Assembly (NCBI GenBank): GCA_008632985.1
Contig: QPGO01000098.1
Coordinates: 124,001-188,000, forward strand
DNA: 64,000 nt
Direction of reading: 5' to 3'
From: Psammoneis japonica
Lineage: Eukaryota
Below are positions 1,872-41,917 of the stretch, one piece after another. Below the pieces are notes generated by a model. The model did no database searches. It was given only the letters and a program-made list of their open reading frames with translations, and had not been told where the DNA came from. The position numbers were made by a program, and so were the translations under genes. The stretch's first letter is position 1. The number at the start of each line of letters is the position of its first letter.

Positions 1872-2715
1872 TGGACCGTGTGTGCCACCTGCTGTTCCAG
1901 TTGTTTGTTGAGAGTTGTGCTTGTCATCTTGGGCGCAGTTTGGGTTCTCATTTGGAGAGGCCTTTCGTGAGATTCCGTCGTGTGTGACGAAAACACGAAA
2001 AAAATGCGATTCGGGTGCGGTTTCGGAATGGCGACTTCGAAACGAACGCCAAAGGCAAGTTTGGGTGTCCTCATCTCAACCGGAACCGGTGCACTGACGG
2101 CTCCAAGGCATGCTCTTGGCTCAACTAACACAGCAGCAGAGTTGCAACATGTGACACAGCATTTTAATCCCATGATCCATTGATGGCGGGGCTTCAAAGA
2201 AACGCATTTTTCTGCAAATCGAAATGAAAACGCCTTTTCATGGATGAAGAGCACACGTAAATGTGCCACTGAAAAGATGGAATGAACTTGCACACCAAAG
2301 TTCACTGTCAGTGCAATTGTTTTATCACAAGCTACAGCCATGTTTGAGCCAATCATTCCCATGTTGAGACGGCCCAAAGTCATCGTTCTGGAGCCGGAAA
2401 TCGTTTTGTGTGTGATTTGCGAACGATTTTAGTGCGGTCTCGGAACGTTTTTCGGGTGGACTTGAGGGAATCTAGGGCCCCCCACAATGTCAAGAGGCCC
2501 TTTCTCACTTTTGGCGGTTGGGATTAATTTTGGCGGTTGGGGTTTTTCAGATTTGAAAAGAGCAGCATCCCGCAAGAAGCAGTGAGGTGGGTTGGTCGTG
2601 ACCCATTCAAAAATGGGGTTCTCATTGCTGCCCGTCAATGCGAACGCGGATCTTGACGCCTCTCGACTTTGCACCATCCATCCTGTCATAAAAAAGAGAA
2701 AACAAAAGAAACAAC

Positions 2716-3891
2716 ATGCCCAAACTCAATCAACGAACCAAATCGGTTCTTGACACAGAGGCCGCCAGTCCCCTTGTTCGTCCACAGTGGTGCAAGGGAT
2801 CCGCCGCCTGCAAAGTCCTGAAGGAGATGTTGATGGAGGGCAAGATGATCCCTGGCGCGATGCCAAAAGAGATCCAGCAGATGCGCGCAGAGTTCATGCA
2901 CTGTCCACTGGACAGATTCCGCACTGGCTTGTGCAGGCTCAAAGACGAAACCGGGTTCAATCTTCGTCGTGTGATGAATGCCAGCAATGAGAACCCTGAC
3001 GGTGAGTGTTGATTGTTGATTGTGTTCCTGCATGAATGTGTGACAATTGGAAGTGACGTCACATCATTGCTGATGCTTGCATTTTCATTTTGACCGCGCG
3101 CTGCATGCACTGTTGTTGTTCTCGTCGTGCATTCACCAGACACCGATGATTCCGATGACAAGCAGCTGTTCTCCGGCGGCCCAGACAGCACTCGTCAGAC
3201 GAATGCATCGGCTCCAACTCCCACCAACAACAATGATGCCGCTGGCATCATGAATGGAGCTGGTGTTGCTCTTGTGGTGGAGGGACGTGGTGGTGGGCAA
3301 GGAGGAGGTTGGAAGAGCTTCAAGCCCATGGTCTTGCAAGCCACTCACAAGGACTCTGTCACCAAGACCAATCACATCGTGTTGCTTGTTGTGGCTCCAT
3401 CTGGTGTTTGCACCACGGACCTTTCTGGCATTCAGCTGTCTGTTGTGGGCAATGGAATGATGCTCAGTTGCCTCTCCCAATGGCCTCAGCACTCCATGGA
3501 CATGGATGCTCTCCACACAGTTCTCCTTTCTGAAGTTTCTGCTGAAGGGGGCGGCCACGGTGGCAATGATGAACTGCATGATGTGCACAAGTGCTTTGAA
3601 GCTCTTTCGGATGAGCTGGCTTCAATGAGGCAGTCTGACTCTGAGGTCCTGTCTTCCACGGCCATCACTCCCTTGCCAATCCAGGTCTCTAGGAAAATCA
3701 ACAAGGTCCATTTGTTGGATGGGCGTGGTGGGTCCAGGATCATTCATGTGGACCTCAAGTCAGAAGATTCAACATGCTGTGCCATGGAGAATCCAAAAGT
3801 CAAGTTGATTGATGCTGCAGGCGGCGGTCTTGGACTCATTGGTGACAATCAGGAGCCTTCATGTTGGCGGATGGGATGCACATGCATTTGA
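2716..3891 (+). pseudogene. Accessory (second) ORF of the Harbinger-like element, two exons
   Basis: ORFs 2716-3012 and 3127-3891 lie inside the TIRs, divergent from the transposase. GTGAGT donor at 3002 and candidate acceptor near 3139. No Tyr in either translation. Confidence 0.5.
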
Positions 3892-4140
3892 CTCAACACA
3901 CAGATTGGGACCCAGGATTGTTGGCAACTGACTGGCATGAGAAAATGCTGCTTTAGACAACAGTCTTAGTGCAACTAGTTGTTTGTGTGAAACACACAAC
4001 TCAGCTCAATCTTTGGCTTGTGCTTCGTCGGCATGTGGTGCCGGCACGGCAACATGCAGTCGTCGTCTGCTCATGTTTTTCATCGAAAAAACGCGCAAAA
4101 CGATGCAAGACGTTTTTTCCAGCAGCTCCCTGTGCACTTG

Positions 4141-4458
4141 CTAAGAATTGCTGAACAATTGCGCGATTCACGTGCCCGAAGGTCGAACATCGTTGCCCGA
4201 AGCAACATTCTACCTTCGCGCAGATGTCCACCCTGCATGGCACATGGTGTTGAAATTCTCATTGCAGTCGCATGAGTCATCGCGGGAATTTCATCAAATG
4301 ACCTCGTGGTGCTGTGATGCGCGATCTACACAAATCGGACATTCTCGAATGCTGGCGCATTTTCTATGGTCTCTACGTGCGTGAAGCTTGAATTTTGTGC
4401 CCGAAGCAACAATCGTCGTTCGGGCACATGAGCCGCGCAATTGTTCAGCGATTCGCAG
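4141..4458. mobile_element. Tc1/mariner-type MITE, TpA-mutated copy
   Basis: Imperfect ~40-bp TIRs (..GCTGAACAATTGCGCG..CGCGCAATTGTTCAGC..). Colinear with 29349-29666. Flanked by TG...TG where the other copy has TA...TA. Confidence 0.85.
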
Positions 4459-6512
4459 TGTGGAGCCCGATGAGGAGGGTTCGGCCCCGCCGAACCCAAT
4501 GAGAAGGGTCCAAGCAACAAGGTGGATGAGACCAACAAGGTGGTTTGCACAGTGGCAAGAACAACCCCAGCGAGGAGGGTGGATGACGAGGAGGGCTTTA
4601 GCCCGACAAGAAGGCCACACGACAAGCTGTGGGTCGTTCTCGCCATTGTGCAACCCAACGAGAAGGTCGAACCGAGGCGCGTTGAGTGCACACGGGAGTG
4701 CACACAGGGTCCCCTGCTGCAAGGATTTCACACATGTGATTTGACCGTTGCTGCAACCACTTGGGGAGCACTTTCATGTGCAAGACTGAAGCACCAAAGC
4801 ACCACAAAAGAGAACTTTTGCGCTGCAGGTTTGCTTGTTGGCAACGGTTTTTGGCGCCGACTGGCAGTCGCGAAATCATTCAAAATTGTCAACATTGCAC
4901 ACAATGTCACAATGAATTAAAAGTCATGCACACATTGATCTCGGCTTCTAAAACCATTGGCATGATCAACATTTAAAAACATTGGCGGGGTTGATTCAAA
5001 CAGACCACGCAGAATTGCACATGCTGGTGCAGTTTAACGGCAGAATCCTTGCAGTCTGCAGAGAGACAGCAAGGTTCTGCTTGCAACCCTTCTACACGAT
5101 TTTATGCTGAGGCACACTTGTGCACGTGCACTTTGCACCGAGAAATTTTGTGTGACTCTGAACGGTGTGTGGTCGAGTTGATGGCTGACAATTTTTCCAA
5201 GCGGCCGATCGACAACCACCACTCCCTCTGACAATGGCACTTTTGGCTGATTTGACCGGTGCGACACCACCTCCTGACCCCCCCTCCTTGCTTGCTGGTG
5301 TTGTGCTCCATTGGATCGTGCCATGTGAGCAAGCCCTGGCTGTAGAATGGGTCAGAATGACTCAAAATGTGGTGAGCTCTGATTCTCGTGGAATCGCATG
5401 CCTTTTTCCCCGTTCTCGTTCACAATGGCGCTCACCTTGAGCTTCCTTGCCCCACATCTTGATGTGCAGGACTCAAAGATTGGGGCATCTGGGTCCGTGG
5501 GTCAACACCGTCACTGTCACCATTTTTTGCTCCGTCCCCATTCTTCCGTGCCGCTCCACCACGGCACTTCTTCTCTCCCCGGTCCATGCCATCCCACCAT
5601 GCACTGCCTCCATTCTCCAAGCTGCTGCGGCAATCCCAAGCACCGACTTTCTGCCATTGCTCATGCCGATTTGCCACCTGCTTTTGTCGTCCTGCTCCGT
5701 GGAACCACCAGACTGCCTCTCTTCCATCTGTCCTTCCTGGCCACCGCTGACGATCCAGGCACCCCAAGTTTTGATCCCAATGGTGAGTTTTCATCAGTCG
5801 TTTGCCTGTTGTTGCATTGCATTTGCAGAAAAGTGTGTTCTCACCTCCTTGTGTTGTTCCATGTCACCGCAGATGTGGTCATTTTTCAGGCGCTGGTGCC
5901 ATGCTTCTCTGTGCAAGTTTTTGTGCATGCCAATGTTGTCTTGCTTTGTTCTTTTCATTGAAGACATGGTGCTGGCTCAAACAGATCCATTCTCTCTTTT
6001 GCGCCCTCTTGCAACATTGTTGGATTGCTGTGCTTGCATCTCTCTCCGGCACTTGCATCACCATCAGTCTCTTTGCTTGCATCATCTCTTCTCCACACTC
6101 ATTTCCCCTGTCAATTGCACGTGCATAATTTCTGCATAAATGGCTCGCACACAGAGTGACAAAACACCACCAAATTGCACAGTGACGGCTGTCAATGGTT
6201 TTTAGAATTGCTTGAGCTCACCCACACTCGAGCAGTGGGGGAGTCCTGCCACGCCGGCATGGATGCGGTGACAGAGTGAAATGACACATTGTCCTTGGGC
6301 ATCATCTCCCACCGGTGCAAACTCCGTGAACAACACATCATTGGAATCCTCATGACATGAGGTTTCCCAATCAATGGCCTCAACTCTTCAACCACTCACT
6401 TGAGGATTTGTGACGTGTCATGCACTTTTACAATGACACAATGCACACGGCACACAAAAATGTCATGTGGTGCAGAATCTGCGCAAAGTGTGCCATGTGG
6501 ATTTACTTGTTG

Positions 6513-6834
6513 GGAGCAAATCTCCACCGGCGGAGATTTGCTCCAAGGGTGTGGCATTGTTGCTCTGTTTGTGACAGCAACTCATGATGACCTGCATTGT
6601 CAAAGGTTGAGATTTGGCTCCTCTCTGTCCACAGATGCAGCTTGCAAAAAAAAACCAGTGTCAAAAGTCAATGTTGAACTTTCAAAATTACAAAAAGGGT
6701 TCCCCCAGATTTTTGGCAAATGTGTGGTCCAAAACAAAAATCGCGTGAACAAAATGTCACACATGTGTCTGAAAATTCTTCGTGTGCTGTGTTTGTGATG
6801 CAAGCAAGCAAATCTCCACCTGCGGAGATTTGCT
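6513..6834. repeat. Pair of near-identical hairpins
   Basis: GGAGCAAATCTCC-accggc-GGAGATTTGCTCC (6513-6544) and AGCAAATCTCC-acctgc-GGAGATTTGCT (6807-6834). Confidence 0.7.
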
Positions 6835-7713
6835 CAAGTCCGGTGGTTGAAGGGTCAAGCAGTTGGAACGGAATTTGCGATGGACCATTTTGTGTGGAAG
6901 ATGACAGACAAAAAATGTGAGAATTGGGGTGCACGGAAGATTTCCACCATGCTTCTCCCACACCAATTTAACACTTAACGCCAATTGGAAACAAGCACCA
7001 CATCATGTGGTGTTTCAAAAAATTTGAACACCACATGTGGTGTTTCGATTTTTTGTTTGGCAATCATGTCCAATTGAATCAGGTTTGAGACCCAAATGAC
7101 TGCATGAACAAATTCTCTGCACTCGAAAACATGCACTTCCACTCTTCAATCATCTCCATGTGACCTTTGGTTGTTGAGTTTCCGGCAAAACTGCTTCCAC
7201 CATGACGGTCCCAACTGCATCACCCGATGAGGTGGAATGTTCCCTCCCACGACCTCCCTCTCCTGCCGGGATGAACAGACAACAGACAAACATTGCTGAC
7301 ATGTTGACAGGCAGCATTGATGTTCCCGATTCACCCTGTGCTTTTGAGGAACAATTCAACAAATTTCAGCAAATTTGAGCAATGTTGACCCCAAAGCAGT
7401 TGTGCGCCCGCTGCCAGCCAAGAAGTCCAGGAATTGATTTTCTCACACCAAGAAGAAGCCAACTGGAAATGCTGAGTCATTTGCAAAGCCTGAGCACCAA
7501 GAGTCATGCTCCACCAAGTGCTTTGATGCAGTGCAGATTGAGGGTTCCATGCGCCCGAGTCACGGTGCCAGAATTTGACGTTCCAAAACACTCCAGTCAG
7601 TCTGTGGTGAGCAGTGGTCATTGGTTCATCTTCTTGGGGATGCTTGATGATTCGACATTTTTATTTGAAATGCTGAATTGGCACACTGGCTCTTCTCTGC
7701 AGGTTTCCATCAT

Positions 7714-8114
7714 GTGTGGGCATGCAGCAGTTTATGCCGCAGAGACAGAAACAGCAAAACAGACAACTTGGGAGGTGCGAGTTGACCAGTCACTAAATTG
7801 TGAGAACAAAAACTGCTCTGCTCGACAACCAACAAGAATTTGCAGGAAACAAGAAGTGACCCGTGTTTGCACTGAACTCAACACAGATGCACATGTTGCA
7901 AAGACTTGTCAAGAACAAGAAGTTCTTGATTGCATGAAGAAGAACAGAAGTGAGGCTCAACTCTTGACTTGAATCCCAGACCTCTGATCTCATTCATTTC
8001 TCAATCTGTGATTGGGTGAGTCGTTGATGGTGGTTGATGGCTGTTTCTGAGTGGTCATTGTCGCACGCAGGACTTGATGGCATGATGACACATGAACATG
8101 TGTGTGTTCCCACA
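7714..8114 (-). repeat. 3' LTR of Copia copy 1 (low-coordinate end approximate, possibly truncated)
   Basis: Aligns by eye to 13792-14198 and begins TG on - right after the PPT. Confidence 0.8.
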
Positions 8115-8141
8115 CTCCCTCATGCCAAAATGTCTGAGTTG

Positions 8142-11100
8142 TTGCCAGCCCTGCACTGACAGGCGATGGCAGATGAACAACGCCAGGCCCGACATTTTCA
8201 TCAGGAAGTTGGCCTGTTGGAGTTTGGTGCCAACAGCCTCAATCAGGAGACATCCATTGGCCACTTCAGATTGGAAGTGATGGCAAATGTTGTTGACATG
8301 GTGCATGGCGCATTTGTGGACGCATCTTGGGCACCTTTGCGATTTCAAGTGTGGCCGAGTTGTCCTCGAACAGTTTGCAGCAAACGGTTGGTGTGGTTGC
8401 CACAGGGCAGAAGTTCTTGTTCACCTCCTCAAGGAGGTGTGTGGAAGCTTTGACATGCCTGGTGGCAGCCGACAGGGCCAAGTGTTCACTCTCACTGCTG
8501 CTGAGAGCAAACTGCTGAGTCTGCAACTTGGATGACCAGCAGAGAGGAGCCCCTCCATGCTTGACAACACAGCCACTGCGAGACTTTGCCGTGTTGGGGT
8601 CCTCCGCCGCGATCGTTTTGTCCCAGTTGCCACAGAAGTCGGCGTCCACGTAGCACTCAAAGCTCTTGGTGCCATCTGGAGGGACCTGAATGTGGTGACC
8701 CTTGTCACGAGTCAGCAACAGGTGCCGACCGAGGTGCTTGAGGGCTGCGCCATGAGACTTCTTTGGATTGGCGGTGAAGCGAGCCAGTTGGTGAGTCGTG
8801 TGCGCGACATCCGGGTGAGTGGACTTCTCAAGGAAGTTGACTTTGCCCACAACCGATCGGCAGTCGAAATCACAGTCAAAAGGTTTGCCGTCAAAGTCAG
8901 GCCCAATGAGCCTGGCAGAGAGGGCTGGAAGCTCCCTGGTGGTCACCACTTTCTTTGGTGTTCCATCCTCATTGACAAGTCCGAGATCAACAAGGATGCT
9001 GTTGATCAGGTGAGGCTGGGCCAAGTGATGTCGATCCTTCTCCCTCTGAATCTTGACTCCAAGGCATTCGTCAATGGTTCCTTCGTCCTCCACATCGAAC
9101 ATGGTTTGCATCAACTTGACAACCTTGTCAATGTTTGCAGCAGACTCTTTGTCAAAGACAAGACAATCATCTGTGTAGACTAGCAGGACTGTGGTTCCTC
9201 CATGGAAGACGCATTCATCGAACTCCGATGGAACAAAACCGAGTTGCAACAAACTGGCGCGGAGATGTTTGCACCAGGTTCGTCCACTGTCATGTCCGCC
9301 GTGTGTGTTCTTCTCAATGCGGAGACAGAATTTGTTGTGATCAATGCCAGGAAATGTCACTCCCTCAGGTGGCTCCATGAAGGTCGGTCGTGGAATGTCC
9401 GCTTGTGGATGCGCAAGGACGAAATCAACTTGTCTTGAATGCCATCCATGCACAACACACAGATGCAGAAACAGATGGATCATTGTCCAGGACAAAGCTG
9501 GTGCGTGAGTCTGGTCACAGTGCTTTCCGGGAATCTGCTTGTGCCCTCCAAGATTAAGTCGACTCTTCCACTTGTAGACTTCTCGTGTGTGAATTCGGCA
9601 CTTGCGCTTCATTGACCACACTGCTGGCAGGATCGTCTCATTGTCGGGTGCATCGGATTTCTCGCATGGTTCCCAGTGATCACGAGCAGCATGGTCTTGA
9701 ATTTCCTTCACCATGGCCTCCTTGAACTGCTCTGCATCTGGCTGCTTCATGGCTTTGTGCGTGCACATGGTGTCAGGATCAGCAGAGGCCTTCAAGAAGC
9801 AAACGATGGGATCATCAAGATCTGCCTGAAAATCTTGTTCTGAGTGCATGTCTTGGTCCAGCACCTCGAAGTCGGCTCTGCATGAGACAATGTTGGCCTG
9901 CTGTTGCAGTTCCGACTCGATCATGCGCTGTGTTGGCTGAACAGTGTGTCCAGACCGCATCGTTTGCACTGCTGGTGGAGGCTCCGGTTCGGGCACTTCG
10001 GACTCTGGCAGTGATTCTGGGGTCTCAGAGGCTCCCTCATTTGTTGCATTTGGCGTGTCTTCTTCGCCTTCCACCAATTCATCCGGTGCGGTCGCCTCCA
10101 CAGGCATTTCGGTGGGTTCGGCACCATGGTGTGCATTTGACGTGGTTCGCGTGGTCTTGATGCGTGCCGCCATTCCGGTCTTCTTGGTGATTCGTGGTTG
10201 AAGTTTTGAGTCTTGGAGAAAGTGGCAGATCTGCTGCCAGCGGGACTCAGTCGCGCGTTGGGATTTGAGCGTTTCGAACAAATTGTCAAACCTCATGTGA
10301 CATTGTGGTGAGACCATCCCTGTGGCGAGATTTGGAACCAGAGCAACTGAACGAGAGTGTCTTGGCAATGGTCCAAGGCACAGACCGACTCGAGAGCGAG
10401 GGTCCCACTTGGGTGCAGTGTTGTTGGCTTGCAATTTGCTGTTTAAAACGTAGACTGGTGCAGGCGAATGGATGAAAGTGCCAAATTTTGGGTTTCACTG
10501 GCACTTTTGAGAAAAGTTCGATCGGCGACACTTGCTGACCAGTTCTTGGCACACAGTCACGCACAGCATTTGCGCATCGAATGGTGCAGGGCCACAGAGC
10601 CACCTCCACTGCTGCTGGCCATCGATGCTCAGCACATGTGAGTTGTGTGCGAGCTGAATCTTGAAGGTCACGGATTCTTTTCTCGCAGGTGCCATTTTGA
10701 AAGTGTGCATTGACTCCACAAAAGGACATCATTTGGTTTGCATCCTTCACTGCCTTGAGGTGTGCATTGTCTGCGAAACGGCCATTGTTGGCATGGCAGT
10801 GAAGAATGTGAACTCCGAGTGATCGGGAGTGTGCTTCAAACGCGTGCTTCGCTGCTGCCATCTCAGCTCCAGTCAATGTTGTTTGCAAATGGACAAAAGA
10901 GAAGTCACTGTGGTGGTCAACGAATGCAGCAGCGCATCTGTGGCGTTTTGTTGTTGCCCAGCCTTTCAATTGGCCCATCAGACCTGGTGTTGTCGCATCG
11001 AGTTGGTCCACCGACACGCGCTGACCGGGCTCAGCAGCTTTGAACATTTTGTTTTGTTTGTTGTCCCCTTTGACTTTCCAAGGTGCTTTTGTCGCTTTTC

Positions 11101-12505
11101 CGAATCGACAGGCAGCACATTGAGGGACGTGGCACGTTGACAGACGACGAGGCAGGTCTCCATTGCGAGCCATGGCTTGCATGCGCGAAAAAGGGAGATG
11201 ACCGAGTCGACAGTGCCAAAGCAGCAATTCGTGGGATGGATTCGTAGGCGTGATGATCTCTTCATTTTTGATGAATTGTTCACCCTCTGAACCGTCCTCT
11301 GACAGGTTGAATTCGACTGCATTAGGGTTGGACGGAGGTGTTGATTGATCCGCATGGACAGCTCCCTTGTTCGGGCTAGTTGTGTCGTCGGGCACTTCGT
11401 CAACTGGAACATGAGTCGGAACAGCAGGTTGCTTGGCATGATCCGAGACCCCGTCGGGCAGAGGAGCATGATTGTGAGCAACAGCAGCGTTGGGTGTGTC
11501 GTCGTCGGGCGGAACAAGGTGTGCTCGGAATGCACAAAAATTTTCGTCACGACGATGGTCGTGTGTTTCGCACAACTCCTGAAGGGACGTAAAAGAAGGG
11601 GCAGAGCGAAAGACACCAACATTGCTTGTGTTGAGGGGGACCGACCGCGTGCATTTTTGGTCCATCCACTCTAAAATGATGCGGTTGCTCGTGGTTGTAG
11701 CATGAGTCCCTTCTTGGGTGCGCTCTTGTGGCTTGAGAGCTTGAGCCAGGTGTTGCGGAGACAGGAGCCGAATCGGGAGGTCGGGCACACAGCAGACGCC
11801 GGGTGTGTTCAAGTCATGTGTTCGGCTGAGGTCATCTTGGATGGGCCAACACACAGTGCCTTTGTGTGAGGCCGATGCATTGCTGGACATGCCCTTGACG
11901 TTGACATTGACCTTTGTTGGTGTCCGGATGAAGTCTGACATTGAGTTGGTCAGACAGCAGGAGGCGTGGTCATCGACACCAATGAGGAATGAGTTGGTGT
12001 CGCAGCTGTGGTCGTTGCAGGTTGAGCACCGTTCCGCATCGGTGGTGGAGGAGCATCCGACAACCGGTTCATGGGTCACGTGGACCTCAATGACCTTGTG
12101 CATGACACGTGTGCCACATTTGCGTCGGACATGTCGTTGGCGGCAAGCAGAGCCTCGCTTGCACCGACTCTGAGGTCTTTGGACTGTGGGCTTGGGATTT
12201 GGGTTGAAGTGGAAGGGCTTGGCTAAGTCAGACAAGGAGCACAATGGATCATGTGCACTGCCAATCACATTGGCTGCGACAGGAATTACTTTCATCAGAA
12301 TGGTGTCCACAGTTTCATCAGTGCAAGCCAAGATTGCAAACAGCACAACAAGCAGTGCAGCATGGATCATCTCCAAACCTGACCGCCACCTTCGTTCGCC
12401 TTGGGCCTGTCCAGTCATGTCATTGATGCCGGGAAGCGGTGAGAGCATCGGACGTCGGCTGGTTTGGATTGCCCCTGTTGCGGTTGTCCGCTTTCTGCTT
12501 GGCAC
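8142..12505 (-). pseudogene. Copia pol (integrase-RT-RNase H), frameshifted
   Basis: Integrase LWHCRLGH, VSVDQ, HANNGRF, HFQNG. RT AVWSMKRK, KWKSRLN.GGH, LLVYTDD. RNase H CYVDADFCG, ALSSSESE, FEDNS. Frameshifts near 10430 and 8300. Confidence 0.9.
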
Positions 12506-12633
12506 GACAGTCCTTGCTCAAGTGCTGTCCCCAGCACTTGTGGAAGTTGCAACACTTCCATTCTTCTCCCTCAAAGGTCTTCACTTTGGGTTCTCCGGGC
12601 TGAGGTTCGACGCCGTGCCAAGTCCATTTTCCT

Positions 12634-13706
12634 TCAAATTTCGGTTTTTTCACCTTTCTTGCGTTTGGCGGCGTTTGAGGACTTCTTGGCCTGGCCAGCG
12701 TTGGAAGGTTTCTGGTCCGATGACCGCTGGGGTGACCTGCGCAAGCGTTGGTTCCGGAGGTCGTTCACTTTGGCGCGAAGAGCAACAATTTGCGCTTGTT
12801 CCTCGGTTGGTTCGTTCCACTTTTCGTTGAGGACGAGGGCTTGACATTTCTTCTCAGCGCGAATCATGAGTTGCTCATGGGTGACATCGACTCCATCGTC
12901 ATGGTCCTCGTTGATTTTCTCCATGTGCTTTGTGAAGTTCTTGTCCGTGCATGCTGCATGTCCCTTGAATGGGTTCGTGATGAGATCGTTGGACGTTTCT
13001 CCTCGGCTTGACAGGGATTTGATCCGGTCCCTCACGTGCTTGTTGAATGCCTTGATGTCGTGGTTGGCTGTGTTGACCATGTGCTTGTCCAAGGATGCGA
13101 GCTCGGAGTGGATGTGGGAGGCTGCAGCGCGAGCATCAATCTCGGCCTTCGAGAGTAGAATTTTGAGGTGCAACACCCCGCAATCCGTGTCTCCGATGCG
13201 ACACTGCTCGGATTCGTTGGCCATGACTTGCTTGGCAGCTTCATCCACCGAGTTGTGAAGGCACAGGCACAGCTGATGGTCATTCTGGGTTTCGCGATTC
13301 TGCCCGTTTGTGCAGGTGGCGGACACCGTGCGGATCTGTTCCGGTGTGATGTTTCCGCACGATGTGAGCATGTTCTGGTTTTCAGCGGCGGCGCCAGCTG
13401 CTCCCTCATTGACGTTGATCATTGGGATGTCGTTCCAACCAAAAGCTCTGGACCTTGTGCAAAGTTCATCGAGCAATGCGCGGATGTTGGGCTTCTGGGT
13501 GTTGAACATGGTCGGTGGAGGTTCAGTGGATGTCTTGAACACGTCGGCATCGCCTCGGCGACTGCAGTCAAGTGGTGCATCACGGGCCAAGGCTGGTGAG
13601 CGAGCGAAGTTGCCAGCTGGAGGGTTGTTCTGGGCGTCAACAAGAGGTTGGATGGCGGCCGGAATGGCTGCAGCAATTGCGGCTGCGATCTGTTCGGCGT
13701 TCATGA
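12634..13706 (-). pseudogene. Copia gag
   Basis: ORF directly downstream of the 5' LTR. The C-terminal knuckle-like WKCCNFHKCWGQHLSKDC continues in the shifted frame 12420-12653. Confidence 0.75.
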
Positions 13707-13791
13707 TGTCGTCGTTTCGGCAACCACAACGTTGGGCTCTGGTTTCTGCAACAATTTTGAACTGAGTCAGGTCTCTGTAGCACAGAGGAAG

Positions 13792-14198
13792 CGTGTGGGC
13801 ACACGGCAGTTTACGCCGCAGAGATAGAAACAGCAACAGCAGACAACTCAGGAGGTGCGAATTGACCAGTTGCTAAATTGTGAGAACAAAAACTGCTCTG
13901 CTCGACAACCAACAAGAATTTGTAAAGAACGAGAAGTGACCCGCATTTGTGCCAAACTCAACATGGATGAACGCAGTGAAAAGACTTGGCAGGAACGAGA
14001 AGTTCTTGATTGCATAAAAGAAAAGAAGAAGTGAGGCTCAATTCTTGATTTGAACCCAAGACCTCCGATCTCATTCGTTTCTCGAGCTGTGATTGGGTGA
14101 GTCGTCGTTGATGGTGGTTGATGGCGGTTTCTGAGCGGTCATTGTCACACGCAGGACTTGATGGCACAATGACACATGAATGTGTGTACATTCTCACA
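13792..14198 (-). repeat. LTR shared by Copia copies 1 and 2
   Basis: Precedes gag of copy 1 and directly follows the RNase H end and PPT of copy 2. Confidence 0.8.
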
Positions 14199-17100
14199 CT
14201 CCCTCGTGCCGAAATGTCCGAGTTGTTGCCATCCCTGAACCGAGAGACGATGGCGAATGAACGTCGCCAGGTCCGGCATTTTCGTCAGGAAGTCAGCCTG
14301 TTGGAGTTTTGTTCCAACAGCTTCAATTGGGAGACGTCCGTTGGCGACTTCAGAGCGGAAGTGGTGATGGACATTGTTGATGTGACACATTCTTGGACGC
14401 ATCTTGGGCACCTTTGCAATCTCAAGTGCTGCCGAGTTGTCCTCAAACAATTTGCAGCAAACTGTTGGTGTGGTCGCCACAGGGCAGAACTTCTTGTTCA
14501 CCTCCTCAAGGAGATGCACAGATGCTTTTACATGCCTGGCAGCAGCCGACAAGGCCAAGCATTCACTCTCACTGCTGCTGAGAGCAAGCTGAGTCTGCAA
14601 CTTGGATGACCAGCAGAGAGGAGCCCCTCTGTGCTTGATGACACAGCAGCTGCGAGACTTTGCCATGTTGGGATCCTCTGCTGCGATCATCTTGTCCCAA
14701 TTGCCGCAAAAGTCAGTGTCCACACAGCATTCAAAGCTCTTGGTGCCATCTGGTGGGACATGGATGCAGCAGCCCTTGTCTTGAGTCAGCAAAAGGTGTC
14801 GTCCAAGGTGCTTGAGGGCCACACCATGGGATTTCTTTGGATTGGCAGTGAGCCGGGCCAGTTGATGAGTTGTGCATGTGACATCAGGGCGAGTGGACTT
14901 CTCCAGGAAGTTGACCTTGCCCATGACCGATCGGCAGTCAAAATCACAATCAAAAGGTTTGCCATCAAAGTCAGGCCCAATGAGCCTGGCAGAGAGAGCT
15001 GGGAGCTCCCTGGTGGTCACTGCCTTCTTTGGAGTGCCATCTTTGTTGATGAGTCTAAGATCAGTGAGGATGCTGTTGATGAGGTGAGGCTGAGCCAAGT
15101 GATGTTGGTCCTTCTCCTTCTGAATCTTGACTCCAAGGTGCTCATCAATGGTTCCTTCATCCTCTGCATCAAATGTGGTTTGCATCAACTTGACAACCTT
15201 GTCAACATTGGCTGCAGACTCTTTGTCAAAGACAAGGCAATCATCTGTGCAGACCAGCAGGACTGTTGTTCCTTCACAAAAGATGCATCCATCAAACTCC
15301 ATTGGAGCAAATCCAAGTTGCAACAACCCGGCTCGAAGGTGTTTGCACCAAGTTTGTCCACTGTCATGTTTGCCACAGATGTTCTTCTTAACGTGGAGAC
15401 AGCACTTGTTGCAATCAATGCTGAGAAATGTCACTCCCTCAGGTGGCTCCATGAAGGCAGGTCATGGAATGTCCACTTGTGGGCACGCAAGGACAAAATC
15501 AACCTGTCTCGAGTGCCATCCATGCACAACACACAGATGCAGAAACAGACGGATCATTGTCCACGACAAGGCAGGAGCACAAGTCTGGTCACAGTGCTTT
15601 CCAGGAATTTGTTTGTGCCTGCCAAGGTTGAGTCAACTGTTCCACTTGTAGACTTCGTGTGCGTGGATTCGGCACTTGCGCTTCATTGACCACACTGCTG
15701 GCAGGATGGTCTTGTCATCAGGCACATCGGTTTTCTTGCACAGCTCCTGATGATCACGAGTGGCATGGTCTTGCATTTCCTTGACCATGGCCTCCTTGAA
15801 CTGCTCTGCATCTGGCTGCTTCATGGCTTCATGCGTGCACATGGCATCGGGGTCAGCAGAGGCCTTCAAGGAGCAAGCAATGGGGTCATCAAGTTCTGCC
15901 TGAAAATCCTGTTCTGAGTGCATGTCTTGGTCCAGTGCTTCGAAGTTGGCTTGGCATGAGACAACATCAGCCTGCCATTGCAATTCTGACTCAATCATGT
16001 GCTGTGTTGGCTGAACAGTGCATCCAGACCATGTTGTCCATGCCACTGGTGGAGGCTCTGGCTCAGGAACTTCCAACTCTGGCAATGATTCTTGGGTCTC
16101 AGAGACTCCCTCATTCATTGCATTTGTCGTGTCTTCCTCGTCTTCCACCAGTTCTTCCGGCACAGTTGCTTCCAAAGGCATTTCAGCAGGTTCAGCACCA
16201 TGGTGGACGTTTGTTGTGGTTTGCATGGCCTTGACGCATGCCATTGTTTCTGTCTTCCCATTGAATTGTGGTTGAAGTTTTGAGTCTTGGATGAAGTGGC
16301 AGATCTGCTGCCAGTGGGACTCAGTCACGCATTGGGATTTGAGCATTTCGAACAAATTGTCAAATCTCACGTGACATTGTGGTGAGACCATCCCTGTGGC
16401 GAGGTTCAGAACCAAAGCAACTGAGCAAGAATGTCTTGGCAATGGTCCAAGACATGGACCAACTTGTGAGCGAGGGTCCCGCTTGGGGACAGTGCTGTTG
16501 GACTGCAATTTGTTGTTGAGAATGTAGACTGGGCAAGCGAACGGATGAAAATGTCAAATCTTGGGTTTTGCTGGTGCTTTTGAGAAAAGTTCGATTGGCA
16601 AGGCCTGTTGACCAGCTCTTGGTGCACAGTTGTGCACAGCGTGTCAAATGGTGCAAGGCCACAGAGTGACCTCTGCCACCATTGGCCATCGATGCTTGGT
16701 GTGAATGAGTTGTGTGCAAGCTGAGTCTTGGAGGTCTTGAGTTCTCTTCTTGCAAATGCCATTTTGAAAGTGAGCATTAACTCCACAGAAGGACATTGTT
16801 TGATTCACATCCTTTGCTGCCTTGAGGCATGCATCATCTGTGAAATGACCGTTGTCGGCATGACAGTGACGAGTGTGGTCTCTGAGTGAGCAAGAACATG
16901 CTTCAAACACACACGCTTGGCCGCAGCAGTCTCAACTCCAGTCAATGTTGTTTGCAGACAAACAAAAGACAGATCACTGCAGTGATCAACAAACAGGGCA
17001 GCGCATCTGCAGCGTTTTGTTGTTGCCCAACCTTTCAATTGACCAACTGGGCCTGGTGTTGTCACGTCAAGCTGATCTGCCAACACACACTGATTGGGCT

Positions 17101-18478
17101 CCACAGCTTTGAATGTTTTGTGATTGTTCAGTGTCCCCTTTGACTTTCCAAGGCACTTCAGTCGCTTTTCCGAATCGACAAGCAGCACATTGAGGGACAC
17201 GACACTTAGAAAGACAACAAGGCAAGTCTCCACTGTGAGCCACAGCTTGGATGTGCAAAAATGGGAGATGACCAAGCCGACAGTGCCAAAGTGACAATTC
17301 GTGGGACGGATTTGTCGGTGTGATGATTTCTTTGATCTCTCGATGAATGATTCTTGATCTGAATCGTCCTCTGACAGGTTAAATTTGACTGTGTTGGGGT
17401 TGGACAAAGGTGTTGATTGATCCGCAGGAGTGGCTTCCTTGCATGGGTTAGTTGTGTTGTTGGGTGCTTCATCAACAGGAATGACAGTCAGATTGGAGGG
17501 TTGCTTGACATGGTCCAAGACCCTGCCAGGTGGAGGATCATGGTTGCGAGCAACAGCAGCATCAGGAGTGTTGTCATTGGGTGCAACAAGGTGCACCCGG
17601 AATGCACAAAAATTTTCGTCACGACAACAGTCTCGCATGTTTTTCATGATGCCTGAAGGGACTTAGAAGACAGGGCGGAGCAAAAGACACCAACGTTGCT
17701 TTTGTTGAGGGGGACCGACCACGTGCATTTTTGATCCATCCACTCTGGTGTGATGCAGTTGTTCATGGTTGCAGCACAAGTCCCTTCTTTTTGGTGTGCG
17801 GAGACAAGAGCCAAACAGGCAGGTTGGGGACACAGCACACGCCGGGGACATGCATGGAATGGGTCTGTCTGAGGTCATCTTGGATGGGCCAACAGACAGC
17901 TCCCTTGCAAGAGGTGGGTGCATTGCCTGACTCACCTTTGACGCCAACGCTGACCTTCGTTGGCACCAGTGACATGAAGTCAGACATTGAGTTGGTCAGA
18001 CAATGCAAGGTGTGGGGTCATCAACGCCAATCAAAAATGAGTTGGTGTCACAGCTGTGGTCATTGCAGGCAGAGTGTTGTTCCATGTCGGTGGCAGAAGA
18101 GCATCCAATGATGGGCTCACAGGTGATGTGGACCTCAACGGCCTTGTGCATGACACATGCCCCACATTTGCAACAAATGCATTGATGGTGGCAAGTGGAG
18201 CCTTTCTTGCACCGTCTCTGAGACCTCTGGACTCAAGGCTTGGGGTTGAAGTTGAAGCAGAAGGGCTTGGCTAAGTCAGACAAAGAGCACAACAGATCAC
18301 ATGCACTGCCAATCACGTTGGCTGTGATGGGAACTACTTTCATCAAGAAAGTTTCCACAATCTCATCAGTGCAGGCCAAGATTGCAAACAGTGTGATGGG
18401 CAGTGTTGTGCAGATCGACTCCAAACCTGACCGCCACCTTCATTTGTCATGAGCTTCTTTGGTCACGTCGTTGATGCC
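14199..18478 (-). mobile_element. Ty1/Copia copy 2, same family, 5'-truncated (no gag), more decayed
   Basis: Colinear with 8115-12430 of copy 1. RT/RNase H in ORF 14145-15452. Homology stops at ~18478. Confidence 0.9.
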
Positions 18479-21400
18479 ATCTGTGTCATCCCCTGGATTG
18501 GGGCTCACATTTGTGTGTAAATGGTGGCAGCACTTAAGTCCATTTTGCTCTCATTCTGCCTTGATGGTGTCTGCCACTCCTGCAAACCAAACTTTCTTTT
18601 CTCTGTGTTTGCATGATTTGATGTTGAAAAGGATGTGCCAAATGTTCTGCCAGATGAGGCTCTTGCCTCTTCCTTCAGTCTTTCTCCTTCCCATCTCTTG
18701 TCTTGTTGGAAATCAGTGTCTTCAGTCACACCATCCTTTGTTGCCTTCTTTGAGCATTTCATCTTCTTCCTCATGCTGAAATTTGCAGTTTTTTTTTTTT
18801 TCCTCAATGTCTTGGCTCTCATGCTGGTGGTTGGAGCTGGGTCTTGCATTGACTGGGATCTTGCTTGCTTCTTCATGCAAATTGTCTCAGTCAGGTTCAT
18901 CCTCATGGCCATCATCTTCTGACTCAGTCATGTGTTTGTTTTCATCTTTGCTGTTGCTTTTGTCATTTTCCACTCCTGCAGTCCAATCAGTGCCACACTG
19001 GTTGTTGCCACAATTGCCCATAAATTTGAATTCTTTGATGCCTTGTGATGTGGTCATCTTCTCAACAGCTTGCATGTGCACATTGGTCAAGGGTGTGGCA
19101 GTGCATTTGAAGGGATTCAGAAGCTTGCCTGTGTGCAGGTTCACAGTGCTTTGTCCACCCTTGGGCAAATCAAATCATGGTTGCAGGCAGGTGCTGCCAA
19201 TGCTGGGCATGTCCATGGTGTTTGTTGGTTCATTCTCAACATGCAAAAGTGCAAATTCACCAAACATGAACTCAAAGTGTTCATCACAGTCAAGGTTCCT
19301 TTGTTGCACAATGGTGTGTGGACTGCAAGTGTTGGAACCTCCCCCTGTGCATGTTTGGCACAAGACAGTGTTCTTGATTGCAGCATGCTTGCAAATCAAC
19401 TTGGGCATTGTCTTGTGTGACAGGTGGCACACACAGTGGCTTGGGCTTGCTCCTTGATGGTCTGGTGGGTGCTTCACTCAACTTTGGGAATGTGGTCATT
19501 TTCGTTCTTCAGCCATGGACATCAGCTCCAGATTCATGCCATCCACAACTTCTGCTGGCATGGCCTTGAACTCAGGATTGCTCTCAATGAAATCAATCTT
19601 GAACAGAGCTGTTTTGCACTGTTGAAGAATCAAGTCTAGAACATCACAAACACTGCCATCATGCTTCTTGGAGTTCAGTCTCACACTTGATTCAGCACTT
19701 TGTCATCTTGTCTGTTGCATGCAGTGGCTTGGCACTGCACACTTCCATGGTGTCAATGCAGATGATTGTGCCTTCTCTCTGCTTCTTTGTGCATTTCAGG
19801 TGGAACAGCAACGGTGCAATTCCTCCAGTGGGAACAGCGCAAATGCTTGGTCTTGCCTTTTAGTGCATCTGTTGGCAGTCTCCAAACAACCACCATCCTG
19901 CCCACATCTTCAAGCATGATGAACAAGTTTTCACCAGATTTGAATGCAAAAACAGCTTGAAAGTTGAAAAGCCCTCACATTGGGTGTTCCAGCCTTGAAG
20001 CACAGTCTGAGAGCTTCTCAGTGCTTGTCATCTCCCCATTGGTGCAGCCTGTGGGATTCTGCTCCTCCATTGGAACCACAGTTCTGGATGCACTCCTGTG
20101 CTCCTTGATGTTCTTCTTCTTTTTTTGTCAGCATGCTCACATGCAACTGGCTTTCTTGGAGATCTTTTGCATGGTCAAAGAACTTCTGGCTTGGTGTGAA
20201 GGCACACAGTCCAACGTTGTTTTCTTTGAATGCAGCACAACTTGCTTGCAGTCTTCTTGTTGCAGGGCAGTCAGAACTCACCCGCCACTTGGTTGTCACA
20301 AGTTGCACAGCACTTGCTCATCACATTCTTTTAAATGAGGATGTTTGTGATCACATTCTGCAATCCAAGCTTTCATGTCCCCCCTTCCAGGATTGCAGCA
20401 CATTCTTCATCTAAAGAATCCACTCCTGCATTTGTGGACAGGTCTGTCTTGGTCTTTGTTGGTCACACATTGTTTGCTGGTCTCCAGCTTCCTGCCATGC
20501 TGAGGGCAGAGCCATTGTGTGGGATGATCTTGTCCACATCAACATTTTTGTTGGCTTGGTTCATGCTTGTCTCTGGTCTTTCATTTGTCAGCAGCAATCC
20601 ATGCCATGCAGTGCTCCTGCTTCTCAGCTAGAACAGGTTGATTGGTCAGATCTGGAGGTGCCAATGCTTTTGTCACCACAGTCCACTGATGAGTTGTGTC
20701 TTCATCTCTCATCTGTGCATGACTTTTGTCCCCTTTTGTCAGGTTTCTTTCTGGTGTTCCTGAGCCAATTGTCAAATGCAATCTCATCTTCATGTGCTTG
20801 CAATTTGGGGACTTGTGATTCAGCTCATTGCAGCACCATTGACACACTGTGGCACCACTCTGGGTGCCTTTCTGGGCATGGCTCTGGTCCTTCAGTCTGT
20901 CAGACTTGTCATTTGTGTGCATTCTTGCCATTGCTGTCCTTGTTGTTTGCATGCTCTTTGTCCCTTTTGTCATTCTGTTCATGAGGGTCATTGTCTTTCA
21001 GATGACTCAGTGGCACATCCACTGCCTTGTCCAGGGTCTTCAGGTGGGTGTCCTTGCCCAGGCTGCAGTCTCTCATGAAACTCTTTTTCAAACCCTTGTG
21101 GCACAGCAGTCATTGTTGCTGTTCTCCACAAACAGGAAAAATGAAGAATGTCATCCATTTCTCAAATGCTGTCTCTTGCAGCCTTTTCTTGACCATTGCA
21201 GTGCTGTCCTTGCACTAAATTTGCATTGGAGATGAATCCATCTGGCACTCTGTCTCCAAATCCTTTGCCAGTGGCATCTTGCACAGTTCTGCCATGTCAG
21301 GTGATGTGCACAAAATCATCTCAGACATGCCAACAAATGGTCAAGTTTGTGGGGCAACAGAGCCTCTCCACACTTGCAATTTTTGAAAGAATTTTTGCAC

Positions 21401-21480
21401 CACATGACTCTGCAGATGTTCAAAAAATTGTGTGGCTAAAAAGAAAAACACTGAAAGTTGTTGAACGGACCGCCCAATGA
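18479..21480 (-). mobile_element. Different Copia family, gag/integrase part only, heavily decayed
   Basis: Fragments such as SPHTIVQQRNLDCDEHFEFMFGEF..ENEPTNTM and GGQSTVNLHTGK..AVEKMTTSQGIKEFKF..DWTAGV resemble the post-integrase region of diatom Copia. No RT seen. Upper boundary approximate. Confidence 0.65.
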
Positions 21481-21959
21481 CTGGGCTGCAAAGTGGTGCA
21501 AAATGCCACCAAAGTCACAAGGAAATGTGTGTGAGTGACATGCAGCACAAACAAACCAAAAAATCATTGTCACAGTCCATCAGCTCAAAGTCCCAAATGG
21601 AGGACCCAATCATGAAGTGTGTCTCCATGTGTGTCCAAATGTGGGCACTGTTCTGGTCCACGTGCCACAGCATCCAGCACAAGCCCATGATGTGATGGTT
21701 GCAAGCAGGTCACACATTGCGGATGATGGGGTTGTCAGCAGTTTTGCAGCCCAGATGACATTGTGCACATTGCGCCGGTGAGCTTTGCTGTGCTGAGTGG
21801 AACACAGCAGAAAATGCAAGATGCATCATGTTCAAAGCAAAGGAAAACACTCAAGCTCAGTGGCCTGGTGGGCAGTGGGCAGCAAACACACCCAATGAGA
21901 CAGAAGTCTTGGGCTCAAATCCACAGAAGTGAGAATGAATCAGCCCCCCTTTTCACACA

Positions 21960-24900
21960 AACTGGCAGACACTGATCATGCTTGCAAGTGTGGCACTGAC
22001 CACTTTTTGACAGTGTCACAACTGGGGTTTTTCATCTGCTGCACCAAGTTTGTATTCTGGAGTGTGCAAAAGAGAGCATCATGACTGACTGCCAACACAG
22101 GAGAAACTGAAGCTCAACAAAAGCATGAGGAACCATGCCATTGAATGATGTGTCATCACTGCACCTTGACATGAGCTGGATCTTTCATCTGCTGTGCACA
22201 AAAACTGAGCTCCAGGAGGTCATCACACTTTCACATTCCACAAACAAGTGGCAAGGGCACCCAAATCTTTTGACAGCCAATGTCAGCCTTGCGTTTGCCC
22301 TGTGAAAGTGCGGGCCACCAGCAGAAAAAGAAAAGCAATTGTGCTGGCATCAGAAAACACAAAATTTTGCAGCTGCACCAGGAGGAAACACAAAATTGCC
22401 CAATGCTGGCATCAGCTCTGTTGTCCAGTGCAAGCACCACACAAAAAGAGGCTTCAATTTTCAAGCAAAAATGGATGAGTTCATGAAATGACAAGCTTTT
22501 TTGGAAAGAGCAGCTTCACTTTTGGGAAAAAGATTTGTCACTTGCAGTGTGGTTGTTGCTTTGACTCCTTTTAATTGCCTTTGTCAGGGCCAGATTAATT
22601 TTCAGACTCTTTTCCAGATGAGTCTTTGTCCACTGTGCCAGCGCTGTTTTGTCATTTTCTTGATGGTGTCACAGTGTGTTGAGGAGAGAAAAAACACACC
22701 ATTGGCCCAAATGGCCATTGCAAAGATTTTCCTTTTGTCTTCCCATGTGTGGTGGTGGGGAGTGCAGCATGACCTTGGTGATTTTGCATTTTTGACTCAG
22801 AAGACAGGATGAAAGAAACAGTTGGAGACTTCATTGTGCAGAAAAGGCATCATCAACCAACTCCAACAGATCATTTTGAGTGCAAGTCCTGACAAAATTT
22901 GCAGCTGTTGGTGACTGCACACACAATTTTGCACCTGCAAAAAACACTGCTGAAAATGTTCAAGCAGTGAAAAAGACCCAGATCAAAGAAGAAATCCCAA
23001 AAGCAACAAACAGGGCACAAGGAAGAGGGGTGCAACCAGAGCCAAAAAGGAGAAAGACAATGGCACTCTGTGGGCAAAGAGGGCGCATCTTTCAGGTTTG
23101 GTGACAGCTCTCCCAGCTCAGCTCACAAGCAACTCTGCCTTTCCATCAACAGCCAAGCAACTGCCATGCCATGCCCCTTTTGATGACAATGATGTGCCTT
23201 GTTGCAAGAGTTGTGGCTCTGGGCATCACAGCAAAGCTCAACTCTCTCCTCAAATGGGCCAAAGCTTGGTCAGCAAAAGACATGTTTGCCAAAGTGCAGC
23301 CACGAACAACTCAAGAGCAGAGAAGCAAATGATCTGTGATGCACTTCTGCTGCTGTGCCTTTGCATCATGCATGAAATGTGTCAATGGAGATTGGGTGGC
23401 AGCTGCACAAGACCTTGCAGCAAAGAGACAAACATTGTGGCAAATGTCTTGCAAAGGCTTGAGCAGAGCTGTTCAAAAAACAGCGTTGGTTTTTGTTCCA
23501 TGCACACCACTGCTGAAAGCAACCACAGCAAGCAACCACCATGGCAATTTGGCCAATGCTTCCTGCATGTGAAGAAGAAGTGTGCACAACTCATGTGTCA
23601 CCAAGGTGTTCACCTGGGGGTGGAGTGAACAATCTTGTTGATGACTTTGGCTGGTGCAAAAAGGGACAGCAGCTGTGTGTTTTTGTGCATTGTGTGGCAC
23701 TTTCATCTGGAGCAACAACACACCAACACAAAACAAGAGGGTCTGAGGAAGAAAAGGACACTTGGCATTGAAAAAAGGGCAGCAGCACATTGTGCCAGTG
23801 CTTTGTCTTTGCAGCGCTGACCAATGCACCTCTTTACCCTCAGCATCATGCAAAGCAAAAAAAGTGAAGGGGGGGTTGCGGTTGACTTGGCACCCCAAAA
23901 AGCTGTGATGGCAAGATTGCACAAAATGCCACCATGTGTGTGACAAGAACTCCAAAGACAAGAAACTGTTGCAAATTGTTTTTTTGGCCAATTGGCGCCA
24001 GTGCAGCAAGCAAACCACAACAGCAGCTGCTCTGTTCCAGCAAAACAAAATGACTTTAATGCGGGAGGCCAACTTGCTGGTTGCAACCATGTTCTTGTGG
24101 ACACCAACGGGGTGTCTGGATTGTGGGGCAGGGGCAGCAGCACCAAAACTGTTGACATTTGTTTCCTTTCATTCCTGTTGGGATCACATGCATCCTGTGG
24201 GCAATTGTGGAGAAAGCAGGCTGGGCATGGTGGCAACATGCATCATTTGTCCAGTGACCTGGCTTTCCTCATCCTGTTCTGAGTCAACAGCAGCAGCTGC
24301 TGCAAGGACCTGTGATTGTTTGAACAATCACATTCTGGCTCAGCAGCATTGGGCTGGGGTTGTTGCAAAGTCAGGCATCCCCACAGATGAGCCAATTTTC
24401 AGCACAAAGATGCACAAGAAAATGCTCTTTCATGGCATTCACCAGATCTGCTGCAGACACCTCACAACTTCAGTCAGTGCAGTTGTTTGAGCAGAAGAGT
24501 GCTTGGCCAAAGGGCAGTTTGCTGCTCACTGGCAGAGCATCTCTGCATGTTGTTTTGCCTGACAAACCCAGCTTGTCACTTGAGTCCATGCTGCGACACC
24601 TCATTCAGCAAATTCCTGTCAGGCTCAGTGGATGAGAAGTCATTGTTGTTGATGCAATGGACCACGTGCATTTCAAAAATCTTGGCTGCTTTCTGGACAT
24701 GTGTGATGCTTTAGAATTGATCAGAGACCAGCAAGAGATGGTGGTCTGTGCCCCTCCTTTCTGCAAGAGTGGTGCAATGTTGATGATTCAAGAGCAAGGT
24801 TTTGCTTGCAGCCCACGCTGTCTGCCCTTTGCTGCTCTCTGGCAAGAGCTGCAATTCCAGGTTCCTGGAATGGTGAGCTCCAGCTCCAGGTCTGGAGCTG

Positions 24901-41907: not shown

Positions 41908-41917
41908 CCCCCAAGAA

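Follow-up and report, generated by a model that had tools for sequence, protein, structure and literature searches.

The window examined here, a stretch of 64,000 nucleotides of Psammoneis japonica DNA (contig QPGO01000098.1, positions 124,001 to 188,000), carries two tandem copies of a Copia retrotransposon whose pol genes have histidine or cysteine at most of the positions where relatives of the element conserve tyrosine. In these His/Cys pairs we would see one outcome of a hypermutation working on the DNA in situ, which converts the dinucleotide TpA to TpG or CpA by one change on either strand. Its target would be the silent, non-genic compartment of the genome, upon which ordinary decay of 5-methyl-CpG, likewise ending in CA or TG, would be superimposed. 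We regard such a compartment-targeted process, on top of CpG decay, as very probable. Adenine deamination as the chemistry of the TpA process is given an even chance, and so is the whole statement in which targeting and deamination are combined.

Across the window the observed/expected (o/e) ratio is 0.16 for TpA, 1.61 for CA and 1.55 for TG; in the Copia copies the values are 0.06 for TpA, 1.4-1.85 for CA and TG, and 0.41-0.73 for CpG. An earlier sequence-only reading had placed the effect in the two Copia copies, where it is indeed present, but it is not confined to them and covers almost all the non-genic DNA of the window. Sequence comparison shows the direction of change to be from TA to CA or TG, with both orientations in each copy, independent hits, and the same outcome in DNA that has not passed through RNA.

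The Copia array and its tyrosine codons

The array occupies positions 7714-18478 and has the layout LTR-internal-LTR-internal (LTR, long terminal repeat), in which the middle LTR is common to both copies. Its parts are as follows.

7714..8142 (inner edge approximate), minus strand: 3' LTR of copy 1; the alignment of the two copies starts at 7714 and the pol match of the relative P0001 ends at 8145
8145..12067, minus strand: pol of copy 1 (pre-integrase/integrase region, reverse transcriptase (RT), RNase H); tblastn matches of the relatives P0001 and P0009 span 12067 to 8145
12634..13872, minus strand: gag-like open frame of copy 1, 412 amino acids, its role assigned from its position upstream of pol only
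13793..14228, minus strand: middle LTR, serving as 5' LTR of copy 1 and 3' LTR of copy 2, within a single collinear alignment
14229..18478, minus strand: internal region of copy 2, broken up into several frames and 5'-truncated at 18478; the P0001 tblastn match spans 18109 to 14229

The offset between the aligned copies is constant at ~6079 bp, with the pol of copy 2 ending at 14229. Pfam matches are RVT_2 (1.2e-27) and gag_pre-integrs (1.2e-9) in copy 1 and RVT_2 (3.4e-12) in copy 2; the rve integrase core has no Pfam match, nor has the gag-like frame of copy 1 any. The order of domains is that of Ty1/Copia elements, the integrase region lying upstream of RT and amino acids 13-1296 of P0001 matching collinearly. 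Flanking LTRs are likewise present, given that 7714-8142 aligns to 13793-14228 at 86.2% identity, with 11 swaps of CA for TG; this identity exceeds the 81.2% of the internal regions. The closest named relatives are Copia polyproteins of Nitzschia and Chaetoceros at 33-45% identity, and metagenome proteins reach 61%. The element is thus like the Ty1/Copia elements of diatoms (CoDi-like) in its RVT_2 and gag_pre-integrase domains and in having integrase before RT, and differs from them in that both copies are dead, with their Tyr codons converted and one LTR in common. The pol of copy 1 is nevertheless open in two frames, 10286-12517 and 8266-10494, despite the conversion of most of its Tyr codons.

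When copies 1 and 2 are aligned with 60 Copia relatives, 555 pol columns are conserved in at least 60% of the relatives, and 24 of these are Tyr. In copy 1 the 24 columns now hold His (10), Cys (9), Tyr (3), Phe (1) and Gln (1); in copy 2 they hold Cys (16), His (4), Tyr (2), Phe (1) and Gln (1). In other words, conserved Tyr has become His or Cys at 19 of the 24 positions in copy 1 and 20 in copy 2, and has been lost altogether at 21 and 22, respectively. Control residues behave differently, conserved His being kept at 19 of 20 positions in copy 1 and 16 of 18 in copy 2, and Cys at 6 of 9 and 7 of 9. Arg is kept at 27 of 35 and 17 of 35, its losses being to His, Gln, Cys, Trp and stop, which is the pattern predicted by CpG decay. 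The proposal of the sequence-only reading, that such pairs descend from a TAC codon, is therefore borne out: it is Tyr that has been converted, with conserved His and Cys mostly kept.

Of the seven motif pairs quoted in support of that proposal, six do have Tyr in the relatives: NTHG in 58 of 60, VFHGG in 52 of 60, VYTDD in 59 of 60, DVAHTT in 48 of 59, ECYVD in 34 of 59 and SESEHL in 38 of 55. The codons of the seventh, KGHHI in copy 1 and KGCCI in copy 2, were read correctly, being CAC CAC at 8697-8692 and TGC TGC at 14771-14766 on the minus strand, but its first position is Leu or Ile in 14 of the 15 relatives listed and Tyr in one. Moreover, two His/Cys pairs outside the earlier list, at amino acids 183 and 386, have Arg in the relatives (48 of 49 and 24 of 60, respectively) and are accordingly products of CpG decay.

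The distribution of the two outcomes over the two copies bears on how the changes were made. The presence of both His and Cys in each copy (10 and 9 in copy 1, 4 and 16 in copy 2) upholds the earlier claim that both strands were affected, and a confinement of the changes to one strand per copy is not seen. At the Tyr columns the joint states, copy 1 first, are Cys/Cys 8, His/Cys 7, His/His 3, Cys/His 1, Tyr/Tyr 2 and Tyr/Cys 1, and the per-copy frequencies predict, for independent hits, 7.1, 8.0, 2.0 and 1.8 for the first four. Since the joint states fit this expectation, the two copies look to have been mutated independently, as had been supposed.

A metagenome scan for an intact member of the family returned two loci only, at 50-56% protein identity. 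One of them (L001:3-1413, on a 1.7-kb contig) is a Copia relative at 56% identity with 12 in-frame stops, o/e values of 0.39 for TpA, 1.40 for CA and 1.52 for TG, and eight conserved-Tyr columns that hold His (5), Tyr (0) and other residues (3); it may represent the same process, on one strand only, in another organism. The other, L002, is intact and has Tyr at 12 of 16 columns.

CA/TG swaps within the array and beyond it

The whole alignment of the copies (7714-12430 against 13793-18478) is 4738 columns long and 80.75% identical; it contains 3815 matches, 65 gap columns and 854 mismatches, of which 698 are transitions and 156 transversions. There are 130 double swaps with CA opposite TG, whereas the seven remaining double-transition classes have between 1 and 17 apiece, an excess well beyond chance. 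Of these swaps 116 fall in the coding part, in all codon phases; 44 can be polarised, 30 to a TA ancestor and 14 to a CG ancestor, with 47 ambiguous and 25 having too few aligned relatives. Arg (CGC) ancestry, which the sequence-only reading had set against its own proposal, is hence true for a minority of the swaps.

The share of CpG decay can be approached from the CpG sites themselves, at which CG is kept in both copies 51 times, in copy 1 with decay in copy 2 135 times, and in copy 2 with decay in copy 1 40 times. Decay is thus heavier in copy 2, and the two halves of the array may differ in age or in methylation history. By arithmetic from these counts CpG has been lost at ~0.44 and 0.73 of sites in the two copies, and a model of independent sites attributes up to ~53 of the 118 internal swaps to CpG, an upper estimate of ~45%. 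Both processes are at work, with TpA accounting for roughly 55-70% of the swaps and CpG decay for about a third.

The same excess appears in other repeats, several of which have no RNA stage.

34243-34865 / 34865-35489, no strand: young tandem duplication; 7 swaps, the next class having 1
36556-37640 / 30128-31221: repeat pair in the second depleted compartment (see below)
41915-42665 / 38218-38978: repeat pair in the same compartment
54400..59520, no strand: TpA-depleted satellite of ~354 bp; 10.3 copies and 82% matches by Tandem Repeats Finder, extended by BLAST to 54411
4146..4459, plus strand: copy, in depleted DNA, of a repeat resembling a miniature inverted-repeat transposable element (MITE); its partner at 29354-29667 lies in a gene island and keeps TA

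In four repeat pairs, the Copia pair and the tandem duplication included, CA/TG swaps stand against the next double-transition class at 130 to 17, 7 to 1, 25 to 11 and 22 to 3. The tandem duplication also speaks to the speed of the process. Its halves share 591 matches and differ by 32 mismatches: the 7 swaps take up 14 of these, single CpG changes another 10, and the remaining 8 are of other kinds. CG is kept in both halves at 13 sites, TA in both at 2, and TA in one with decay in the other at 1. The independent-site CpG model predicts ~1 swap, leaving ~6 from TpA. By arithmetic, loss of TpA is near complete in both halves at ~1.3% background divergence and ~28% loss of CpG, and on this comparison it is hypermutation, not slow drift, that the duplication would record. 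Selection against TA, through avoidance of a nuclease target or of TATA, was considered as a separate cause and rejected on the near-complete loss in this silent duplicated DNA at such low divergence.

In the satellite, comparison of ten units gives 26 pairs of columns with both CA and TG, no other class exceeding 6. Some of these columns have CG as their third state and some TA, and the units also differ by CpG changes. The MITE-like pair likewise bears on polarity: of the island copy's TA sites, 7 are CA in the depleted copy, 7 are TG and 4 are TA; these counts are taken over the whole 420-bp alignment, its poorly aligned ends included, and one site has TA in the depleted copy only, opposite TT in the island.

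Plain CpG decay as the whole explanation, in which His and Cys would both come from Arg CGC by C-to-T changes on opposite strands in the two copies, can be set against these results. It is true of a minority of sites, as the Arg at amino acids 183 and 386, the 14 CG-derived swaps and the CpG o/e of 0.41-0.73 attest. As sole cause it is ruled out by the Tyr columns, the polarised swaps and the MITE-like pair, whose island copy shows TA at sites that are CA or TG in the depleted one; nor does it account for a TpA o/e of 0.06. We hold it to be highly improbable.

A second alternative places the editing before integration, as an ADAR-like conversion of A to I in the retrotransposon's RNA or a deamination of its cDNA, with the changes then inherited. 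The preference typical of ADAR for a 5' U or T, as given in the Discussion of a recent preprint (bioRxiv 10.64898/2026.01.13.699255), would suit it. It could also draw on the mild clustering by orientation of the swaps between the Copia copies (54 runs, where 65.1 +/- 5.6 would be expected, P=0.028). Overall the two orientations number 69 and 60. Both orientations, however, occur in each copy, the two LTRs differ by 11 swaps, and the same swaps are found in the satellite, the tandem duplication and the MITE-like repeat, single-copy DNA being affected too. Since the swaps are present in DNA without RNA passage, a post-integration origin at the level of DNA is supported, much as the sequence-only reading had argued from the two copies, and editing before integration has little likelihood.

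Compartments of the window and the evidence of the reads

TpA o/e is at most 0.20 (0.00-0.20) in 54 of the 64 1-kb bins and 0.35-0.75 in the other ten, which lie at 25001-30000, 51001-52000 and 60001-64000. The window is divided as follows.

1..25047, no strand: TpA-depleted compartment with the Copia array; per kb, TpA o/e 0.02-0.15 and CpG o/e 0.04 to 0.98
25048..29874, minus strand: gene island with a leucine-rich repeat (LRR) protein gene; TpA o/e 0.49-0.68, CpG 0.79-1.06
29875..51132, no strand: second TpA-depleted compartment, with the tandem duplication and the two repeat pairs
59937..64000, no strand: gene island of normal TpA and CpG, with the following two genes
61144-62109, plus strand: ankyrin-repeat gene
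62476-63999, minus strand: DDT/WSD gene, which runs off the window

Within the window the depletion is confined to non-genic regions, the islands having TpA o/e of 0.49-0.75 and the rest 0.00-0.20. The edges of the islands, at 25048, 29874 and 59937, are sharp: there are two TA in 24000-25047, 205 in 25048-29874 and none in 30001-31000. The LRR gene has exons at 25135-26713 and 26838-29296 on the minus strand, and the 124-bp intron between them (26714-26837) contains 7 TA. The non-coding DNA of the islands is TA-dense, in this intron, in the promoter parts, and in 29297-29874 and 60000-61143.

These features bear on a third alternative, a neutral bias against TpA across the whole genome from which genes would appear exempt only through selection on their codons. 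In its favour, genes are the sole TpA-normal DNA in the window. Against it stand the sharp edges and the presence of TA across codon positions 3/1 in all four gene frames tested (observed/expected 16/27, 37/65, 20/25 and 13/33), and, because the non-coding DNA of the islands is TA-dense, a global bias masked by selection is contradicted in this window. It is given very little credence. The islands are spared, their non-coding parts included, and the loss of TpA in the rest is far more complete than either CpG decay or background divergence.

As to the reads, three runs of one sample carry the DNA, and the first of them (X1) contains 0.98 of the sampled words. Contigs derived from X1 reads, at a word depth of ~30, show 0 differences from the window, for example at 21050-24950, 24921-27699 and 16374-18059. 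Contigs of a second run (X2) cover the LRR gene only, and no contig of the third (X3) falls on the window; missing cover carries no conclusion. X2 is labelled 'DNA?' and may be an RNA library, its coverage being limited to the LRR gene, whose intron at 26714-26837 is skipped by one of its contigs. Over the Copia region the summed word depth is ~66-1089, such that the family must have many copies. Among the other copies of the family, 22 of the 40 best-supported differences listed (of 1037) form 11 CA/TG swaps; most of the single changes among the 40 are CpG-related, and one restores TA.

An artefact of sequencing or assembly, in which a modified base in TpA is miscalled so that CA comes from the reads of one strand and TG from those of the other, can be weighed against these data. 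Such miscalling would give random reciprocal CA and TG, and the runs have no recorded library type. The match with X1 rules out an error of the consensus, not every read artefact that depends on chemistry. The exact-word contigs at ~30x, however, agree with the window letter for letter across 3.9 kb and 2.8 kb of depleted and genic sequence, the other genomic copies have fixed swaps of their own, and the copies differ also by transversions and indels. An artefact is accordingly judged scarcely credible.

As to the host, which is probably a diatom and is not Bigelowiella natans, those relatives of the DDT/WSD protein that have names are diatoms or bear diatom-like transcriptome labels, and no protein close to 100% identity came up. 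Among the 120 matches listed the best, at 54%, has no name, and the named ones are Ditylum (46%), followed by Thalassiosira, Conticribra, Fistulifera, Amphora, Skeletonema and Cyclostephanos. Diatoms are also found among the matches of the LRR protein. Protein Atlas gave only family-level leads for the WSD protein, with scores of at most 0.81.

Within the depleted DNA, Pfam searches of 90 further open frames of at least 130 amino acids gave two weak matches only, below the curated cut-offs. The stretch 21707-24374 has a summed word depth of ~36, as a single-copy gene has, with TpA o/e of 0.02-0.04. Regions 18001-25000 and 39001-48000 combine a TpA o/e of 0.00-0.09 with a CpG o/e of 0.02-0.18, have no Pfam match in their long frames, and presumably represent the DNA that decayed earliest. 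At 51133-52420 and 53382-54187 TpA is intermediate (o/e 0.17-0.35 per kb); no gene is recognised there and one frame has a weak ARM_LRRK2 match below cut-off; these may be small genes, or recent entrants to the depleted compartment. A run of seven N at 41901-41907, either an assembly gap or a masked stretch, adjoins the repeat at 41915-42665.

A possible editor and its known counterparts

The targeted compartment would be heterochromatic and methylated. Its methylated, silent character is suggested by the depletion of CpG in many of the TpA-depleted bins; several others of these bins keep CpG o/e of 0.8-0.98. Within it, an enzyme would deaminate the adenine of TpA, on whichever strand, to inosine, which is read as G. 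The flanking bases may matter in addition to the dinucleotide. Compared site by site with the genes, residual TA is enriched in YTAR, the per-bp ratio to the islands being 0.32 for TTAA and 0.24 for CTAA, and is lowest in ATAT (0.008) and in ATAG, ATAC and GTAC (0.017-0.034), which hints at a preference beyond TpA itself. By type, surviving TA is mostly TTAA, CTAA/TTAG and CTAG, and ATAT, ATAG/CTAT, ATAC/GTAT and GTAC are almost gone.

Oxidised thymine mispairs with G. A process of identical targeting and other chemistry is consequently conceivable, in which the thymine of TpA would be oxidised to 5-hydroxymethyl- or 5-formyl-uracil by an enzyme of the TET/JBP type, giving T-to-C changes on either strand. 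It predicts the identical outcome from TA to CA or TG, in both orientations and with the same targeting of a compartment, and the data of the window do not separate it from adenine deamination, the strand-context test being non-significant. Diatoms are not known to modify thymine abundantly. The one study of this signature favours a deaminase, on homology grounds alone (bioRxiv 10.64898/2026.01.13.699255). Thymine oxidation is thought unlikely, though less so than any of the other alternatives.

Several points weigh against the reading of a targeted TpA hypermutation by deamination. Swap counts overstate the TpA process, as about a third of the swaps are CpG-derived and the model allows up to ~45%, and their polarity leans on relatives only 40-60% identical at the protein level, no intact member of the family having turned up and no outgroup at the nucleotide level having been recovered. 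A fifth repeat pair has 0 CA/TG swaps, so that this class is dominant in four of five pairs. X1 may be the assembly's own source run, with its library type not on record. The depleted single-copy DNA may descend from old repeats. As to chemistry, the strand changed shows no significant dependence on the flanking bases (RTAR, CA 6 and TG 6; YTAY, CA 9 and TG 25; Fisher P=0.16), and the thymine route yields the same site-level pattern.

A close counterpart is found in the chlorarachniophyte Bigelowiella natans. According to a preprint (Mettrop et al., bioRxiv 10.64898/2026.01.13.699255), mutation-accumulation lines of this alga acquired de novo changes from TpA to TpG or CpA in two integrated viral regions, its genome has 124 clusters depleted in TpA and enriched in CpA and TpG, reverse transcriptase and DDE domains are over-represented among its TpA-depleted coding sequences, and adenine deamination is proposed for the signature. 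The two signatures are the same, with both changes in both orientations, the enrichment in CpA and TpG, and a regional confinement that leaves other DNA normal. They differ in host, which here appears to be a diatom, that is, a stramenopile, and in target, integrated viruses there and, in this window, the Copia array, the satellite, short repeats and non-genic DNA in single copy. They differ also in degree, a Rho of 0.45 being given for the region of nucleocytoplasmic large DNA virus (NCLDV) origin against near saturation here (o/e 0.00-0.20 in 54 of 64 bins), and in the nature of the evidence, de novo mutations there and fixed differences coinciding with CpG decay here. A search of the literature, with subscription journals outside its scope, found no report of TpA hypermutation in diatoms (an apparent TpA match in PMC4504042 proved to be the word 'Tpase'), and a TpA-erasing process of this kind would so far have been reported only in that one unrelated alga.

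Three other systems provide useful comparisons. [quoted passage not shown] The process described here resembles it in being DNA-level and post-integration, with dinucleotide-specific transitions that destroy transposon frames on both strands, and runs in the opposite direction, TpA being destroyed (Tyr to His or Cys, TpA o/e 0.06). Unlike RIP, it would not require present-day duplication, as single-copy DNA (depth ~36) is depleted as well, though this may be old repeat. Decay of 5-methyl-CpG also yields CA and TG in place on both strands, and contributes about a third of the swaps, but it starts from CG, not TA, and is less complete (~0.44 and 0.73 in the two copies, against Tyr lost at 21 and 22 of 24). 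Editing by ADAR or APOBEC proteins similarly inactivates retroelements by deaminase-type transitions with a neighbour preference; it acts on RNA or pre-integration cDNA and on one strand, whereas here both strands and non-retroelement DNA are affected.

Taken at its broadest, the proposal is of a genome defence, RIP-like and chemically opposite, common to the distant lineages of the stramenopile-alveolate-rhizarian (SAR) group to which diatoms and chlorarachniophytes belong. A chromatin-guided TpA editor would act in silent chromatin faster than methyl-CpG decay, erasing nearly all susceptible TpA and with it every Tyr codon of a transposon, by means of an undescribed double-stranded DNA adenine deaminase or thymine modifier. 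This proposal is tentative, and we put its chances at somewhat below even. If the process is real, TpA-directed hypermutation would have a second example, much more extreme than the first, in a distant SAR lineage, and its targets would include retrotransposons, satellites and most of the non-genic DNA of the window, not only integrated viruses. This would suggest that a system for killing transposons, comparable to RIP in fungi, is widespread among marine algae, and would point to an enzyme, as yet undescribed, by which the A:T pairs of native DNA are edited, with relevance to base editing.

There would be consequences, too, for the treatment of such DNA in annotation. Dating of LTR elements by divergence would be badly inflated, 258 of the 854 mismatches between the Copia copies sitting in CA/TG swaps and 188 being single CpG changes. 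Loss of TAA and TAG stops from silent DNA would create spurious long frames and mislead gene finders, and dead transposons would seem open, with Tyr reading as His or Cys. Long open frames occur in all six frames of the depleted DNA because TAA and TAG are largely gone from it. Frames of 300-377 amino acids, evidently spurious, run through the satellite at 54400-59520, and the 13 kb of 7000-20000 hold 112 stop-to-stop frames of at least 60 amino acids, including antisense frames of 215-359 amino acids over pol.

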